DNA of 64,000 nt from Escherichia coli (GCF_022846255.1 NZ_AP025682.1), one strand, 5' to 3'. Positions 28,433-35,719 are shown, numbered from the stretch's first letter. The notes: generated by a model not told the origin, from the sequence alone. Translations and numbers: made by a program.

Positions 28433-29974
28433 ATGCGTAAGTTATCAACCGCCGAGACACTGGCGGCGCAAATTCAGGACGGCGCAACCATTGCCATTAG
28501 CGGCAACGGCGGCGGTATGGTGGAAGCTGACCATATTCTGGCCGCCATTGAAGCGCGCTTTCTGCAAACCGGACACCCGCGCGATCTGACATTAATCCAC
28601 TCGCTGGGTATTGGCGATCGCGACAGCAAAGGCACTAACCGTTTTGCTCACGCCGAAATGCTCAAACGCATTATTGCCGGACATTTTACCTGGTCGCCCA
28701 AGATGCAGGAACTGGTGAAAAGCAATGCTATTGAAGCCTACTGTTTCCCTGGTGGCGTAATTCAGGCACTGCTGCGGGAGATCGGTGCCGGACGTCCGGG
28801 GCTTTTTACCCACGTTGGGCTGGGATCGTTTGTTGATCCACGCAATGGTGGCGGTAAGTCGAATGAATGCACTACCGACGACCTGGTAGAACTGATTGAA
28901 ATCGACGGTGAGACCAAACTTCGTTATCGCCCTTTCAAAGTGGACTACGCGATTTTGCGCGGCACCTATGCCGATCCGCGTGGCAACGTCAGCCTCGAAG
29001 AAGAGGCGATTGATATGGATAGCTATTCGATGGCGCTGGCAGCACACAACAGCGGCGGCAAAGTGTTCGTACAGGTCCGCGATGTGCTGGAAGCAGGTAC
29101 CATTGAACCACGTCGGGTCAAACTACCAGGAATTCTGGTCGATGGCATCGTTGAGCACCGCGAACAACCGCAAACCTATCTTGGTGGTTACGACCTGACG
29201 ATCAGCGGTCAACATCGCCGTCTAAGTTCTAACGACGCTATTGAACTGGTTAGTCATCCGGTGCGTCGCCTGATTGCCCGTCGGGCAGCGCGGGAACTGG
29301 TGGCAGGCGCTTCAACCAACTTTGGCTTTGGTATTCCCGGCGGTATTCCTGGGGTTGCACTGCGCGAAGGCGTGCCTTATCAAAGTTTGTGGCTGAGTGT
29401 AGAACAGGGTGTACATAACGGCATGATGCTGGATGATGCTCTGTTCGGCTGCGCCCGTAACGCCGATGCCATTATTCCATCACTCGATCAATTCGAATTC
29501 TACAGTGGCGGCGGTATCGATATCACCTTCCTCGGCATGGGAGAGATGGATCGGTACGGTAACGTCAACGTATCCCATCTCAATGGCAATCTCATTGGCC
29601 CCGGCGGCTTCCTCGAAATTGCGCAAAACGCCCGTAAAGTGGTGTTCTGCGGTACGTTTGACGCCAAAGGCAGCAAGATTGATGTAACGCCTGATGGCCT
29701 GCATATCGCCCAGTCAGGTCAAATCCCCAAACTGGTTACCCAGGTGGAAAAAATTACTTTTAGCGCCGCATACGCACAGCAAAGCAGTCAGGAAGTGCTG
29801 TATATCACCGAACGTGCGGTATTCCAGTTAACGGCAGAAGGCGTTGAATTAATTGAGATCGCCCCTGGCGTAGAGATTGACCGCGACATTCTGCCGTATA
29901 TGGCCTTCCGTCCGATTATCAGGCACCCACGCCTGATGGAAAGTAGCCTGTTTACGCCAATGGAGGATGCATGA
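28433..29974 (+). CDS. Family I CoA-transferase, fused alpha/beta type (YdiF-like acyl-CoA:acetate CoA-transferase)
   Basis: 513-aa ORF with glycine-rich N-terminus (ATIAISGNGGGMVEADHIL), resembles E. coli YdiF-type short-chain acyl-CoA transferases; AAGGA RBS. Confidence 0.8.
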   Translation: MRKLSTAETLAAQIQDGATIAISGNGGGMVEADHILAAIEARFLQTGHPRDLTLIHSLGIGDRDSKGTNRFAHAEMLKRIIAGHFTWSPKMQELVKSNAIEAYCFPGGVIQALLREIGAGRPGLFTHVGLGSFVDPRNGGGKSNECTTDDLVELIEIDGETKLRYRPFKVDYAILRGTYADPRGNVSLEEEAIDMDSYSMALAAHNSGGKVFVQVRDVLEAGTIEPRRVKLPGILVDGIVEHREQPQTYLGGYDLTISGQHRRLSSNDAIELVSHPVRRLIARRAARELVAGASTNFGFGIPGGIPGVALREGVPYQSLWLSVEQGVHNGMMLDDALFGCARNADAIIPSLDQFEFYSGGGIDITFLGMGEMDRYGNVNVSHLNGNLIGPGGFLEIAQNARKVVFCGTFDAKGSKIDVTPDGLHIAQSGQIPKLVTQVEKITFSAAYAQQSSQEVLYITERAVFQLTAEGVELIEIAPGVEIDRDILPYMAFRPIIRHPRLMESSLFTPMEDA

Positions 29975-32043
29975 GTCAGCTTGATGAGGCCATCCTTGAT
30001 GCACTGACACACGTTACTTTCCCAAAGGGTTTTGCACAGGCAGAACCCGCATGGGTTGTCACGGTAGACGGTGTTGATTACCCACTCTGGAAAACAGATG
30101 CCCTGGTAGTCGGCAGTGGTGCAGCCGGGCTACGTGCAGCTGTGGAACTTAAACGCCGCCAGCAAAATGTGTTAATCGCCACCGCCGGGTTATATATGGG
30201 GACATCGGCATGTTCTGGCTCTGATAAACAAACACTGTTTACCGCCGCTACCGCGGGCAACGGCGACAACTTCGCCAAACTGGCAGAGGCACTGGCGAGC
30301 GGTGGGGCGATGGATCACGACACCGCTTATGTTGAAGCGGTAGGTTCTCTGCACACTCTTGGCGGGTTGCAATATCTTGGTCTGGAATTACCGGAAGATC
30401 GCTATGGCGCGATTCTTCGTTATCAAACCGACCATGACGAAGCCGGGCGTGCAACCTCGTGTGGGCCGCGTACCTCAAGGTTAATGGTGAAAGTGCTGCT
30501 GGAAGAAGTACAGCGTCTTGCTATCCCAATGTTGGCCAGTGCAACAGTGATTAAACTGCTGCATCAGCGTGACGAAAACGGTGAAGACCGTGTGGCGGGG
30601 GCAATCCTCGCGACCGGTCATCGCGCCCATAACCCATGGGGGCTGGCAATTGTGACTGCGCCCAATGTGGTACTGGCAACAGGCGGGCCTGGCGAGCTTT
30701 ATCGCGACAGTGTGTATCCACACAAATGTTTCGGCTCGCTGGGGCTGGCGCTGGAGGAAGGTCTGACGTTAACGAATCTGACTGAAAGCCAGTTTGGTAT
30801 AGGCACACCGCGCAGCACGTTTCCGTGGAATTTGTCCGGCACCTATGTACAGGTGATCCCATATATCTATTCCGTGGATGCCGGGGGCAACGAGTATAAC
30901 TTCCTCGCGGATTACTATCGCACCACCCAGGAGCTGGCTTCAAACATTTTCCGTAAAGGCTATCAGTGGCCGTTCCACGCCACGCGGGTAATGGATTTTG
31001 GCTCCAGCTTGTTAGATATGGCAGTAGCGCAAGAGCAGCAACATGGTCGTCAGGTATTTATGGATTTCAATCGTAATCCAGAACCTGTGCCGGGTGACCT
31101 ACCGTTCTCATTAGATCGACTGGACGACGACGTTCGCGCGTATCTGGAAAATAACGACGCTCTGGCACCATCGCCCATCGAACGCCTGCAACAAATGAAT
31201 CCTCTGTCTATCTCGCTGTATAAGATGCACGGTTACGATCTCATCACGCAGCCATTGCAGTTTGCCATGAATAATCAGCACATGAATGGCGGCATTGAAG
31301 TCGATATCTGGGGACAAACATCTCTGCCCGGTTGTTTTGCGGTGGGGGAAGTTGCTGGCACACACGGCGTCACCCGACCTGGCGGCGCGGCGTTGAATGC
31401 CGGGCAGGTTTTTGCTGTTCGTCTGGCGCGCTTTATTGGTTGCACGCAAAAGCGGAATATTGATGGAGATATTGCACAGCTGGCAGCTCCGGCACTGGCT
31501 TCTATAAGAGAGATCATTACTCAGGCGCACGATAACGGGTCCGGGATGCCGTTGTCGGTTGTGAGAGAAAAAATTCAGGCACGAATGTCTGACTATGCGG
31601 GATTTATTTGCCATGCCGATAAAGTCCGACGTGCCACTCGTGATGCCCTGCTATTGAACGAATTTGTCCAACGACATGGATTGGCAATCAAACATGTGGG
31701 TGAAGTTGCCGAGCTGTTTATGTGGCGGCATATGGCGCTGACTTCTGCCGCGGTATTAACACAATTAACGCATTATATTGATGCTGGTGGTGGTAGCCGT
31801 GGGGCGCGTATGGTTATTGATCCACAAGGCAAATGCCTACCACAAACTCGTCGCGGCGCAAAAGAAGAATGGCGTTTTCGCTCTGAACTCGCTGAAGACA
31901 AAAATCACAAATTAACAATTCAATATTCGCAAGGTTCTTTTATTACCGAAGTAAAGTCTTTACGTATGCAACCGTGTATTAACGGTATTTACTTTGAAAA
32001 AAACTGGCCAGACTTTTTAAAGGGAGACATTTACACACAATAA
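29971..32043 (+). CDS. FAD-dependent oxidoreductase, fumarate reductase/succinate dehydrogenase/L-aspartate oxidase flavoprotein superfamily, with long C-terminal extension
   Basis: 690-aa ORF; dinucleotide-binding motif (DALVVGSGAAGLRAAVEL) and C-terminal FAD-binding signature (CFAVGEVAGTHGVTRPGGAALNAGQVF); start ATG overlaps upstream stop (ATGA); GGAGG RBS. Confidence 0.8.
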   Translation: MSQLDEAILDALTHVTFPKGFAQAEPAWVVTVDGVDYPLWKTDALVVGSGAAGLRAAVELKRRQQNVLIATAGLYMGTSACSGSDKQTLFTAATAGNGDNFAKLAEALASGGAMDHDTAYVEAVGSLHTLGGLQYLGLELPEDRYGAILRYQTDHDEAGRATSCGPRTSRLMVKVLLEEVQRLAIPMLASATVIKLLHQRDENGEDRVAGAILATGHRAHNPWGLAIVTAPNVVLATGGPGELYRDSVYPHKCFGSLGLALEEGLTLTNLTESQFGIGTPRSTFPWNLSGTYVQVIPYIYSVDAGGNEYNFLADYYRTTQELASNIFRKGYQWPFHATRVMDFGSSLLDMAVAQEQQHGRQVFMDFNRNPEPVPGDLPFSLDRLDDDVRAYLENNDALAPSPIERLQQMNPLSISLYKMHGYDLITQPLQFAMNNQHMNGGIEVDIWGQTSLPGCFAVGEVAGTHGVTRPGGAALNAGQVFAVRLARFIGCTQKRNIDGDIAQLAAPALASIREIITQAHDNGSGMPLSVVREKIQARMSDYAGFICHADKVRRATRDALLLNEFVQRHGLAIKHVGEVAELFMWRHMALTSAAVLTQLTHYIDAGGGSRGARMVIDPQGKCLPQTRRGAKEEWRFRSELAEDKNHKLTIQYSQGSFITEVKSLRMQPCINGIYFEKNWPDFLKGDIYTQ

Positions 32044-32135
32044 TTTTCAATATTTCCTCTGTACCTGATTTTTATTGCCTATTACATGGAAATACCAACA
32101 ACCAGGGTTTATTAATATAATTAAAAGGTTTAAAA

Positions 32136-33413
32136 ATGAATAAAATAAAGAATTATCGATGGCATATGATTGCCCTCGTATGCTTTATCACTGTAATCAA
32201 TTATCTGGACAGAACGGCGTTAGGTATTGCGGCTCCAACGATTATGGAGACAACCGGAATAACCAAAGAACAATATTCATGGATTGTCAGTGCATTCCAG
32301 TTGGCCTATACATTGGGGCAACCGATAATGGGCTTCTTTATTGATACCGTGGGTCTGAAGTTAAGTTTTGCGATATGTGCCGCAATCTGGGGCCTGGCGA
32401 CAATGGGGCATGCCTTGACAGGAACATGGTCAGGTCTGGCATTTATGCGCGCCCTGATGGGTTTCAGCGAAGCATCGGCAATTCCTGCGGGTGTAAAAAC
32501 CGCATCAACATGGTTCCCGGCAAAAGAGCGTGGCGTGGCGACAGGTGTATTCAATATGGGTACCTCACTCGGCGCGATGCTTGCTCCACCGTTGATTGCC
32601 TGGTGCATTATGTTTCATAGCTGGCAATTTGCGTTTATTGTCTCAGGTAGCCTTGCTTTACTCGCGGCTTTATTTTGGTTCTTTTGTTATAAAGATCCAA
32701 AAGATGCTAAACGCCTTTCTGATGAAGAGCGCCACTATATTGAGTCTGGGCAAGAACAGCATCTTAAAACAGATAAGAAAGAAAAAACGTCAATCAAGCA
32801 TATCCTCAGCCAACGTAATTTCTGGGGGATTGGCATCGCGCGTTTTCTCGCTGACCCGGCATGGGGAACCATTAACTTCTGGGTACCGATTTTCTTCGTC
32901 GAAACGCTGCATTTTAGCCTGAAAGAAATTGCCATGTTCGTCTGGCTGCCTTTCCTGCTGGGCGATCTCGGCTGTTTAGCCAGTGGTTTTGTCGCGAAGT
33001 TCTTCCACGATCGCGGCGTGAGTTTAATTAACTCACGAAGAATTACCTTCACTATTGCAGCCGTCATTATGATGACGATTGGTCTGGTGAGTATTGTCGA
33101 AAATCCCTACATCGCCGTATTACTGATTAGCATTGGCGCATTCTCGCATCAATGTCTTTCTACTGTTGCAGCAACTCTGGGCGGTGACCTATTCAAAAAA
33201 GACGAAGTAGCTACCGCTGTGGGTATGGCAGGAGCCTGTGCATGGAGCGGTCAGTTGATTTTCAACCTGTTTATCGGGGCATTCGTTCACATTATTGGCT
33301 TCGCGCCGTTCTTTATTGCCCTGGCTTTCTTTGACATTATTGGCGCCATTGCGCTGTGGATGCTTATCAAAGTTAAAGACGAAGAACCACAAGTACAGTT
33401 AGCGACAAGCTAA
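32136..33413 (+). CDS. MFS transporter, anion:cation symporter (ACS) family (hexuronate/aldonate-type)
   Basis: 425-aa 12-TM ORF with MFS signature (YLDRTALGIAAP; GxLxDRxG-like loop), resembles ExuT/DgoT-type organic anion permeases. Confidence 0.85.
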   Translation: MNKIKNYRWHMIALVCFITVINYLDRTALGIAAPTIMETTGITKEQYSWIVSAFQLAYTLGQPIMGFFIDTVGLKLSFAICAAIWGLATMGHALTGTWSGLAFMRALMGFSEASAIPAGVKTASTWFPAKERGVATGVFNMGTSLGAMLAPPLIAWCIMFHSWQFAFIVSGSLALLAALFWFFCYKDPKDAKRLSDEERHYIESGQEQHLKTDKKEKTSIKHILSQRNFWGIGIARFLADPAWGTINFWVPIFFVETLHFSLKEIAMFVWLPFLLGDLGCLASGFVAKFFHDRGVSLINSRRITFTIAAVIMMTIGLVSIVENPYIAVLLISIGAFSHQCLSTVAATLGGDLFKKDEVATAVGMAGACAWSGQLIFNLFIGAFVHIIGFAPFFIALAFFDIIGAIALWMLIKVKDEEPQVQLATS

Positions 33414-33555: not shown

Positions 33556-34824
33556 CTAAATTGCCCCCCTGAACGCCTCTGCCATTAACTCTTGCTCACG
33601 ACCAGGTAATCGAAGACGCTCGGCAATGATTCGCCACTGACTGACAATCCCTCTAAAATTAGCAATAATGTCATCTGCTTCTGTCAAACCAAGTCGAAAA
33701 TAATCCACAACTTCTCGAGCTAATTCCAAATCAAGTGCATTATCATTTTCTGTAATATTGAGTTTTAGACCGTCAGACCTGGCAACAGGATTCAAATCAT
33801 ATGCCTCAGAAAGCCGCCAACCTTTTCCCGGTATCAAGATATATCCATGATTACGTAAATGGTCATCGGTATTAGAAACAAGAATATTAAAAACAATCCT
33901 GGACCAGAGTTCCTTAAGGTCAGTATTAGTCTGCGCTCCATGTCTGATAAGAACATCTGCTAATTCCAGATAACTCACACCTGTAGAGGCATCTTCACCA
34001 TCCTGATGCCTGGTTAGTGTCATAGCCGAAGCAAAATGCAGACGCCTTCCCGCATTAGTGCGGTCAAAACGACGAACCATAAAACAATGGTAATTGCTGG
34101 CAAATTTATGCGCCTGAGCAGGTGCAACATTCAGTCCACAGCCAACAGCAAGTGCATTAACGACCATTTCCCATCCACCAACATCATACTCATCTTTTAC
34201 ACTGGGAAATTTAGCGATGTAGAGATACCCAGCTTCATCAACAACACTGGCTTTCGGACGTGTCCCCCCTAATGATCCCCCCGGAGCGATTAGCATTCTT
34301 AACCATTTTTGCCCCATTAGCTCTTTATTATCAGGATCTTCTTCAATTGCCCGGCTAGCCCTTTCCAGACTCGCTATTTCGGTAAATGGTGGGGCTGCAA
34401 CATCAATGCGATTATCAAGAAACTCTCCAGCGTCTTCACGTTTGTATCGAAGAGCCCCAACCCGATAAAGATCATGAACACCTAGTAGATAATCAGACTC
34501 ATAAAGGTGGGAGTCTTTATCACATAACCCGTCTCGAATATCCCTCTCAAAACGACGCTTCATTAGCATACGCCCCCAACGATCCGGGCAGGAATCACTA
34601 AATGCACCAAATTTATCCTTTGGAGGAATTGGGTACTGTGCTCCCTCATACAACATTATTTCAGGATCTAACTGAATGAAATTAAGTGAAGGATCTGCAA
34701 GCGCCTTTTTATCGTACTCAAACTCAAATATCTCACGCGTCCGAGTGCGGCGACTGTGTAAATAACCAATCCGCTCCGGACCATCCAGGCCTTCCCAATC
34801 CGCATACACTCCGATTAATGCCAT
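33556..34824 (-). CDS. HipA-family serine/threonine kinase (type II toxin-antitoxin toxin candidate)
   Basis: 422-aa ORF; HipA N-terminal motif (FSDSCPDRWGRMLMKRR resembles HipA FDNLLPDSPIVRDRIVKRY), glycine-rich loop (IAPGGSLGGTRPKASVV), catalytic motif (LVSNTDDHLRNHGYIL); AAGGAAA RBS; starts 2 nt after upstream HTH gene stop. Confidence 0.85.
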   Translation of the reverse strand: MALIGVYADWEGLDGPERIGYLHSRRTRTREIFEFEYDKKALADPSLNFIQLDPEIMLYEGAQYPIPPKDKFGAFSDSCPDRWGRMLMKRRFERDIRDGLCDKDSHLYESDYLLGVHDLYRVGALRYKREDAGEFLDNRIDVAAPPFTEIASLERASRAIEEDPDNKELMGQKWLRMLIAPGGSLGGTRPKASVVDEAGYLYIAKFPSVKDEYDVGGWEMVVNALAVGCGLNVAPAQAHKFASNYHCFMVRRFDRTNAGRRLHFASAMTLTRHQDGEDASTGVSYLELADVLIRHGAQTNTDLKELWSRIVFNILVSNTDDHLRNHGYILIPGKGWRLSEAYDLNPVARSDGLKLNITENDNALDLELAREVVDYFRLGLTEADDIIANFRGIVSQWRIIAERLRLPGREQELMAEAFRGAI

Positions 34825-34826
34825 AA

Positions 34827-35318
34827 TTAATTTCCTTTTAACGGTTTTTTTATCGGTTTTAATAGTGCTGCAAGAGAGGTTGATGTTTCTCCTGTAATAG
34901 ATGGCGTTGAGCCTTCTGCCAGTGCTGTTAAATCCGTGGTGAGTAAACCTTCTTTCTCATACCTCGTTTGAAAAGGGTCTGTCTGAATACCTTCTTCATT
35001 TTTACCTGATGAACGAGAAAGCCCTCTTTTTTTAATCAAACGGGAATCCTGGAGCTGACGCCCTAAGTCGTCTTCAGCTGCAAGCTTATTTAAATCCGTT
35101 TCCAGGCCCAAAACCTGCATCACAGACAAATATGCCCCTATCGTGACCCCTGCACTTCCTGACTCCAGAGAGCGCAATGTTATTGGCGACATCCCAGCAC
35201 GTTCAGCAACTTGCTTTGCGGTAAGCCTGCGTCGTAAACGAGCAAGTTTCAGCCGCTCACCAAATTCACTAAGCATCTGATTCGTATAAGGGAGTAACGG
35301 TGCTGTTTTTTTACCCAT
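34827..35318 (-). CDS. XRE-family HTH protein, HipB-like antitoxin candidate with ~90-aa Ser/Thr-rich C-terminal extension
   Basis: 163-aa ORF; HTH_XRE region ([32 protein letters not shown]); immediately upstream of and co-oriented with the HipA-like gene; no clear SD at the first ATG, alternative start at Met15 (35276) possible. Confidence 0.75.
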
Positions 35319-35338
35319 AGTGATAATATTTTATCTTT

Positions 35339-35359
35339 TTATGGCTATGATAGCCATAA
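35339..35359. promoter_or_regulatory. Candidate operator: perfect 10-1-10 palindrome ttatggctat-g-atagccataa upstream of HipB-like gene
   Basis: Perfect inverted repeat 21-41 bp upstream of the HTH gene start codon in an AT-rich promoter region. Confidence 0.55.
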
Positions 35360-35664
35360 TATTAGCATTTATTGGATTGAACGCACCTGCAAAGCGTTCA
35401 AGATTACGAAAGTGATGATATTTTATCCTTTTATATATAAAAACAATAAAATAACAGCGCATTCATATATAACATATTGTTTTTATTATCATACAAGGGA
35501 GACGATCGCTGTATTGATGCTTTTGTCGTGTTTTACGCGTAAAAAACATGACACGAACTACCAGCGGCGAGGCTGGGGGCCAGGTATGGGTACTGCGAAC
35601 TTTTTATAAAAGGAATAACAAGAGATTTATGGAGGGAACGTCTGTTTCTGCGGTTTTTATCACT

Positions 35665-35697
35665 TAAAAGCAAAACGCCGACCACTGGTCGGCGTTT
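35665..35697 (-). terminator. Rho-independent terminator of rpsF-priB-rpsR-rplI operon
   Basis: Stem aacgccgacca/tggtcggcgtt followed on the minus strand by ttttgctttt, 23 bp downstream of rplI stop. Confidence 0.75.
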
Positions 35698-35719
35698 TTA
35701 CGTCTCGTTGAATAACGAA

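Follow-up and report, generated by a model that had tools for sequence, protein, structure and literature searches.

We found that the antitoxin of a chromosomal hipBA-type locus in Escherichia coli ends in a short motif that is conserved across a very large protein family, and structure prediction suggests that this HipB is probably built of three parts: an HTH (helix-turn-helix) domain, a disordered tether, and a conserved C-terminal motif that docks on the HipA kinase. Because the terminal motif is conserved across so large a family, the tail of HipB is not an inert appendage. From the predicted docking we infer that the motif would bind HipA in vivo and thereby neutralise the kinase.

The locus was analysed in a window of 64,000 nucleotides (the whole stretch of DNA under study) from a chromosome of the E. 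coli B2/LF82 type, and it is 99.8% identical to the locus of LF82. The hipB-like antitoxin ORF (34827..35318, minus strand) encodes an XRE/HTH protein of 163 amino acids, and its stop codon (34827..34829, minus strand) is located 2 nt ahead of the start codon of a gene for a 422-amino-acid HipA-family Ser/Thr kinase toxin (33556..34824, minus strand; Pfam HipA_C, 5.4e-45). In RefSeq the two products are labelled ‘helix-turn-helix domain-containing protein’ and ‘type II toxin-antitoxin system HipA family toxin’, and the pair is flanked by an MFS transporter gene and rplI. The first-pass annotation of this region had reported the ORF, several peptides in its product and a HipA-like neighbour, all of which are present at the locus; the range it gave for the C-terminal half of the protein (34827-35100) is one base off the codon register, as residue 74 begins at 35099. 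By gene order, domains and fold, the locus is a bicistronic hipBA-type toxin-antitoxin module, with the fold part of this assignment resting on predicted structure. The module has two genes, with hipS absent, and its kinase has kept the N-terminal domain, so that an assignment to the HipBST modules was rejected. The PADLOC defence models gave no meaningful match.

The hipBA locus was found in 1047 of 5426 complete E. coli genomes (about 19%), chromosomal in every case, and its carriers include the AIEC strain LF82 and uropathogenic strains. As far as the searchable literature goes, the clade to which it belongs appears to be uncharacterised: no paper with experiments on this clade was found there, and its accessions are absent from the supplements of the Gerdes et al. 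(2021) Hip phylogeny. That phylogeny has several hipBA clades without an experimentally analysed member (PMC8262856). It was also observed that the pair forms the edge of an accessory cluster (29971-33413 and upstream) adjoining the rpsF-priB-rpsR-rplI operon. The cluster has genes for a sugar-phosphate isomerase, an enoyl-CoA hydratase, a CoA transferase, an FAD-dependent oxidoreductase and an MFS transporter, and no more than roughly one in five complete E. coli genomes carries it. The hipBA module may stabilise this accessory island.

The N-terminal domain of HipB (residues 1-94; 35037..35318, minus strand) is an XRE/HTH DNA-binding domain on the evidence of Pfam, PDB, AF2 and alignment. 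Its HTH at residues 18-75 matches Pfam HTH_31 (6.6e-11) and HTH_3 (2e-6), and residues 1-97 match PDB 9u9g, the HipB of Pseudomonas fluorescens 2P24, at 1.4e-30. In Foldseek, the model of the HTH domain superimposes on 9u9g with a TM of 0.87 and 62-63% identity, and AF2 predicts the domain as six helices with a pLDDT of 80-92. The P. fluorescens protein belongs to the same family and, at 153 amino acids, also has a long C-terminal extension, but the model in 9u9g (released 2026-04-01) covers no more than the HTH domain, at 77-85 residues. That the tail is missing from it is consistent with disorder of this part in free HipB. No paper on 9u9g was found in the searchable literature, and the PDB copy searched contained no kinase chain of the family of this HipA. 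Against the K-12-type HipB equivalog model NF007271 and the Y4mF-type antitoxin model TIGR03070, HipB scored 16.5 bits (cut-off 79) and 30.3 bits (cut-off 71.65), respectively.

The partner kinase is predicted to have the full-length HipA architecture, with N-terminal subdomains and a kinase core. Its AF2 model superimposes on full-length K-12 HipA (PDB 3dnt) with a TM of 0.71 and 16-18% identity (Foldseek), and its alignments with the HipA proteins of K-12 and Shewanella oneidensis span 455-472 columns at a target TM of 0.63-0.73. In 63 kinase orthologues, the Gly-rich loop LIAPGGS184LGGxRPKASV, the catalytic segment SNTD320DHLRNH and the segment AYD343xN345P are invariant, including S184, D320/D321, N325 and D343/N345. 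Thus, the kinases of this clade are under purifying selection.

The module therefore shares with K-12 HipBA (HipB 88 aa, HipA 440 aa; PDB 3dnt, 3dnv, 2wiu, 4yg7) the bicistronic hipB-hipA order, an XRE/HTH antitoxin, and a kinase of full-length fold with the Ser of the Gly-rich loop and the catalytic Asp. The two kinases are nevertheless remote in sequence, with no match at E < 0.01. The antitoxins differ in the tail, which is short in K-12 HipB, whereas the HipB studied here is almost twice as long and has a disordered linker of about 48 amino acids followed by a terminal motif of the LxxLL type. K-12 HipB is described as using its folded domain to bind HipA at a distance from the active site (PMC7758455), and its very C terminus contacts HipA (PMC8262856). 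The best direct PDB sequence match of the kinase is HipT (2.5e-8), the Hip-family kinase of the HipBST modules of E. coli O127 and Legionella (PDB 7ab3-5, 8ezr). Those modules have a separate hipS and an N-terminally truncated HipT, while here two genes encode the whole module and the 422-amino-acid kinase retains its N-terminal subdomain. In HipBST the kinase is likewise neutralised by something other than the HTH domain of HipB, as is predicted here.

Alignments of homologues divide HipB into three zones: a nearly invariant one (residues 1-94), one that resists alignment (residues 95 to about 142), and a strongly conserved end of roughly 20 residues. The middle zone (residues 95-142; 34893..35036, minus strand) is a hypervariable Ser/Thr-rich linker that is disordered according to AF2 and the alignments. 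The first-pass annotation had drawn attention to clustered Ser/Thr residues in the tail, and the abundance of these residues is real as a compositional enrichment. Residues 95-163 contain 16 Ser/Thr in 69 residues (23%) versus 10.7% in the ordinary long ORFs of the window, where only 1.0% of 69-residue windows have 16 or more. In 179 homologues the equivalent linker has a mean of 21.8% Ser+Thr (sd 6%); it also contains much Ala, Lys, Arg and Pro but hardly any aromatic residues. The linker ranges from 35 to 164 amino acids in length among these homologues. The Ser/Thr enrichment is thus compositional rather than positional, and is typical of a disordered region.

The same annotation had proposed that the Ser/Thr clusters serve as a phospho-acceptor decoy or substrate for the kinase. 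Two of its clusters, SRSSG (residues 101-105) and GSTPSIT, fall within the hypervariable linker, and neither the homologue alignments nor the E. coli alleles conserve individual clusters, which speaks against this proposal; the conspicuous clusters most likely just reflect linker composition. HipB alleles from E. coli and its nearest relatives differ almost solely within residues 96-127. A further peptide quoted in that annotation covers residues 136-148. Of the basic patches, KPIKKPLK (residues 154-161) belongs to the conserved C-terminal motif, and LIKKRGL (residues 94-100) is the end of the last HTH-domain helix and the start of the linker. It had also held that poor conservation of the tail in homologues would imply a disordered linker only; this describes the Ser/Thr clusters, but the terminal motif is conserved family-wide.

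Variation in the linker was also observed at a finer scale. E. coli has at least two linker haplotypes with about 10 differences within residues 102-125, the remainder of HipB being identical (P0005-P0008), and two alleles (P0004 and P0008) stop early at ...KPIKNR and thereby lack the final part of their basic end. In a Rhodocyclaceae MAG (L072:3001-3843) and in Ramlibacter (L078:3001-3714), the HipB linkers are enlarged to about 100-180 amino acids by tandem 12-residue repeats (EALPxEQLRKAI-like), and both proteins keep the terminal GGF-[AS]-S-x-[DE]-x-L-A-x-L-I despite the long linkers. These two proteins are evidence from nature that the length of the linker is free.

The conserved C-terminal motif corresponds to residues 143-163 of HipB (34830..34892, minus strand; defined by the homologue census and AF2, with the translation checked), and its 11-residue core lies at 34854-34886 on the same strand. 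A homologue search of 5.8 billion proteins returned 2362 matches at E <= 1e-5, and full-length relatives of 150-175 amino acids were found in Enterobacterales, Pseudomonas, Burkholderia, Azotobacter, Stenotrophomonas and others. An alignment of 26 sequences shows no variation at L149, L152, L153 or P155 and a conservation of at least 90% at T145, A150 and K154. The core can be written as [T/S/N](-4)-[S/T/A](-3)-x-[S/D/A/E](-1)-L(0)-[A/S/V]-x-L(+3)-[L/I/F](+4), followed by a K/P-rich run. It is present in 179 of 185 distinct close homologues, with the Leu at +3 invariant, and the six without it look truncated, frameshifted or diverged. The conserved determinants are hydrophobic (L149, L152 and L153) and Pro/basic (K154, P155, K157 and K158). 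A profile search of 1.84 billion representatives at 50% identity gave 1178 proteins at E <= 1e-10, and most of the full-length ones end in a similar motif, for example GGF-[AST]-S-[SA]-[DE]-x-L-A-x-L-[IL] … KK(R).

AF2 was run on HipB by itself and on a fusion with the kinase. With HipB alone (65-sequence alignment), residues 106-140 had a pLDDT below 50, and the blocks within residues 141-160 had values of 63 and 66 with a five-residue helix. When HipA was joined to HipB in a HipA-(G4S)8-HipB fusion, the pTM was 0.73 and the kinase was well folded; the HipB linker was still below 50, and the L149-K158 block reached a pLDDT of 91. The fused model has a β-bridge at E144-T145 and a helix at S146-A150. 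This was one run with a shallow alignment of 106 rows, all at least 50% identical to the query, of which 12 were paired homologue fusions and the others unpaired halves. The motif gained about 25 pLDDT points only with the kinase fused, and we read this gain as predicted docking on HipA. An exposed amphipathic helix can, on the other hand, gain AF2 confidence by packing on any hydrophobic patch. The model thus predicts a tail that lacks order in free HipB and contains a conserved stretch that would become ordered on the toxin. The first-pass annotation had suggested that this antitoxin engages its kinase differently from canonical HipB, and the motif being ordered in AF2 only with the kinase indicates that engagement is probably unlike that of the compact 88-amino-acid K-12 HipB.

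The same docking could be read in another way, in which the motif enters the substrate cleft of the kinase as a substrate or pseudosubstrate, with T145/S146 (or S148) phosphorylated or held at the acceptor position, and in which phosphorylation of the antitoxin tunes its release or its neutralising activity. We regard this as unlikely, although several observations are in its favor. T145 (-4) and S146 (-3) are the only conserved Ser/Thr residues of the tail, and they are located where the predicted helix begins. Among the 179 close homologues, position -4 is Thr in 122, Asn in 33 and Ser in 20, and position -3 is Ser in 103, Thr in 39 and Ala in 36. A set of 102 family representatives, chosen without using positions -4 and -3, has Ser in 51, Thr in 22, Asn in 9 and Asp in 4 at -4, and Ser in 44, Ala in 28 and Thr in 18 at -3, with positions -2 and -1 rich in Glu/Asp. 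A hydroxyl at -4 or -3 is found in 88 of these 102 (86%) and in all alignment rows viewed by eye. Position -1 alternates between Ser and Asp/Glu in the close homologues (Ser in 85, Asp in 53, Glu in 10), which is readable as phosphomimetic. HipT of Legionella (HipT(Lp)) has been suspected, in a speculative remark, of promiscuously phosphorylating its HipB (PMC10653801).

The distribution of these residues nevertheless argues against an obligatory acceptor. Fourteen of the 102 representatives have Ser/Thr at neither position, -4 is Asn or Asp in 13 of the 102, and -3 is Ala in 20-27% of sequences. Besides, a residue of the set [S/T/N/D] followed by acidic or small residues ahead of a helix, here [S/T/N/D]-x-[E/D]-[D/E/S/A], is the classic N-cap/first-turn pattern, and the AF2 helix starts at S146. 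The conservation of T145/S146 is therefore explicable without phosphorylation, and helix capping would fit it better than an obligatory phospho-acceptor. The docked residues with the highest confidence are L149-K158 rather than the Ser/Thr run, and the other Ser/Thr clusters of the tail are unconserved. No paper reporting HipB as a substrate of a Hip kinase was found in the searchable literature.

Two likenesses were considered in this connection. KLSKR/KMSKS loops are the sites phosphorylated by HipA and HipT, and the K154-P-I-K-K segment was compared with them; the pattern K..K[KR] occurs 7 times across the 102 representatives versus 6.8 expected from shuffles, so that the likeness is at chance level and KMSKS mimicry was rejected as a family feature. 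The tail sequence S-L-A-A is loosely like the G-G-S184-L-G-G loop of the kinase, a point in favor of mimicry, but the two share only two identities and -1 is not conserved as Ser, and we keep this as a weak note. It was separately observed that a minority of the family ends in S-K-[KR] (11 of 102 representatives versus 4.3 expected from shuffles; among them P0246, P0251, P0256, P0263, P0285, P0336 and P0375), which superficially recalls the S-K-R/S of the KMSKS loops of aminoacyl-tRNA synthetases, targets of Hip kinases. The E. coli protein does not have this ending.

A partner scan of 80 hipB-like loci, with one genome per species, showed an intact hipA of about 422 amino acids directly downstream of hipB in 62 loci, mostly with a 4-nt overlap (ATGA). 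Five loci were cut off by contig ends, and in 12 the kinase was lost or a remnant: it was missing at L006, L045, L052, L057, L063, L064 and L080, and present as remnants or frameshifted at L016, L024, L058, L059 and L073. A different toxin partner at the kinase-less loci was rejected, since the downstream ORFs there are either remnants of the kinase or genes with unrelated housekeeping or transport functions. These loci are modules that have been orphaned or have decayed, and they do not represent new pairings. The terminal motif is absent from 2 of the 12 kinase-less loci versus 0 of the 62 intact pairs, the only losers being L063, whose C terminus has diverged, and L024, where hipB is truncated. 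The association of motif and kinase is weak (p roughly 0.02, uncorrected for phylogeny), and 10 of the 12 kinase-less loci still carry the motif.

That the motif is mostly kept where the kinase is gone would suit a degradation signal. The hydrophobic/basic motif could be mainly a Lon/ClpXP signal that destabilises free HipB, with kinase contact secondary, for example as shielding of the signal. In K-12 HipB, whose C-terminal tail is unstructured, the C-terminal 16 residues are needed for degradation by Lon. In the present protein, the tail is also predicted to be disordered in HipB alone, and an LAA-like tripeptide occurs in the motif, which is hydrophobic. The LAA is not C-terminal, however, as ssrA-type recognition by ClpX would need, and the strict conservation of the motif across very different hosts, with a helix-capping pattern and a Pro/basic extension, goes beyond what a degron usually needs. 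The rise of the AF2 confidence to 91 specifically with the kinase likewise favors a docking function. We therefore consider it improbable that the motif is mainly a degron.

A third possibility is that the basic end of the tail (KPIKKPLK), together with a Lys/Arg-rich linker, touches DNA flanking the operator, as a contact or spacer without direct control of the kinase. The tail is attached to a DNA-binding domain, most members of the family have a basic cluster at its end, and the homologue linkers contain 18% Lys+Arg versus 10% Asp+Glu. In contrast, the linker of E. coli HipB itself is not basic, and the invariant positions of the motif are leucines, which would not be expected of a DNA contact. 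Moreover, the motif is not predicted to become ordered alone or against the HTH domain, but does so with the kinase. A role of the tail purely in DNA contact is thus very improbable, more so than a degron or a substrate mimic, and a kinase-docking motif remains our preferred reading.

The region upstream of hipB contains a perfect 10-1-10 palindrome of 21 bp, TTATGGCTAT-G-ATAGCCATAA (35339..35359, no strand assigned), 20 bp 5’ of the hipB start codon, which is a tentative candidate for the HipB operator as judged from the sequence. The assignment is tentative because the upstream regions of hipB in the 80 related loci share no common palindrome. Other elements were observed in the vicinity. 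The hipB-rplI intergenic region (35317-35422) has a 14-nt direct repeat in three copies (ATAGTGATAATATT-like), also candidate HipB operators, and several Pseudomonas loci have AGTGCTATTATT-like elements. A strong intrinsic-terminator-like hairpin lies just 3’ of rplI (35672-35698, minus strand); it has a 12-bp stem with 7 G-C pairs, followed by a T-rich tract (6 T per 8 bases), and sits between the ribosomal-protein operon and the hipBA promoter region.

Based on these results, we propose a model of how the antitoxin probably works. The HTH domain (residues 1-94) would dimerise and repress the operon, by analogy with other HipB proteins. The linker of about 48 residues, in which a composition rich in Ser, Thr, Ala, Pro, Lys and Arg is maintained while sequence and length drift, would be a flexible tether, allowing the HTH dimer to sit on DNA while each tail holds one kinase molecule. 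The short linear motif T145-S-T-S-L149-A-A-L152-L153-K-P-I-K-K would form a capped helical turn and an extended Pro/Lys segment on the HipA surface, with T145 and S146 most likely placed at the N-cap and in the first turn of this docking helix. Capture of the kinase by the tail could result in neutralisation, in recruitment of the kinase to the operator, or both.

Such an arrangement has parallels among other type II antitoxins. AtaR, for example, neutralises its toxin via a disordered C-terminal region (PMC7758455), and AtaR, Phd and CcdA all combine an N-terminal DNA-binding domain with a disordered region behind it, in which a conserved segment, as predicted here, folds on the toxin. Their folds and toxins are unrelated to those of the present module, in which a very short terminal motif is carried on a long tether of variable length and its binding is predicted.

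The clade of this hipBA locus has thousands of members across Proteobacteria. A bolder version of the substrate idea is that the terminal motif is the neutralising element itself, plugging the substrate-binding region of the kinase with its Thr/Ser as substrate or pseudosubstrate, so that the toxin phosphorylates its own antitoxin. We think this unlikely to be correct; if it were, phosphorylation of the antitoxin would set the threshold of release, a self-tuning kinase/antitoxin switch that has been described for no Hip system. On the docking reading, which we favor, if the tethered motif holds the kinase, the clade would follow the disordered C-terminal toxin-binding logic of type II antitoxins, unlike the domain-mediated distal binding of K-12 HipB, and the modelling of neutralisation, conditional release and operator occupancy would change for it. 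At 11-16 residues, the motif is small and precise enough to be targeted by mutagenesis, or by competing peptides directed at a persistence-type kinase of pathogenic E. coli.
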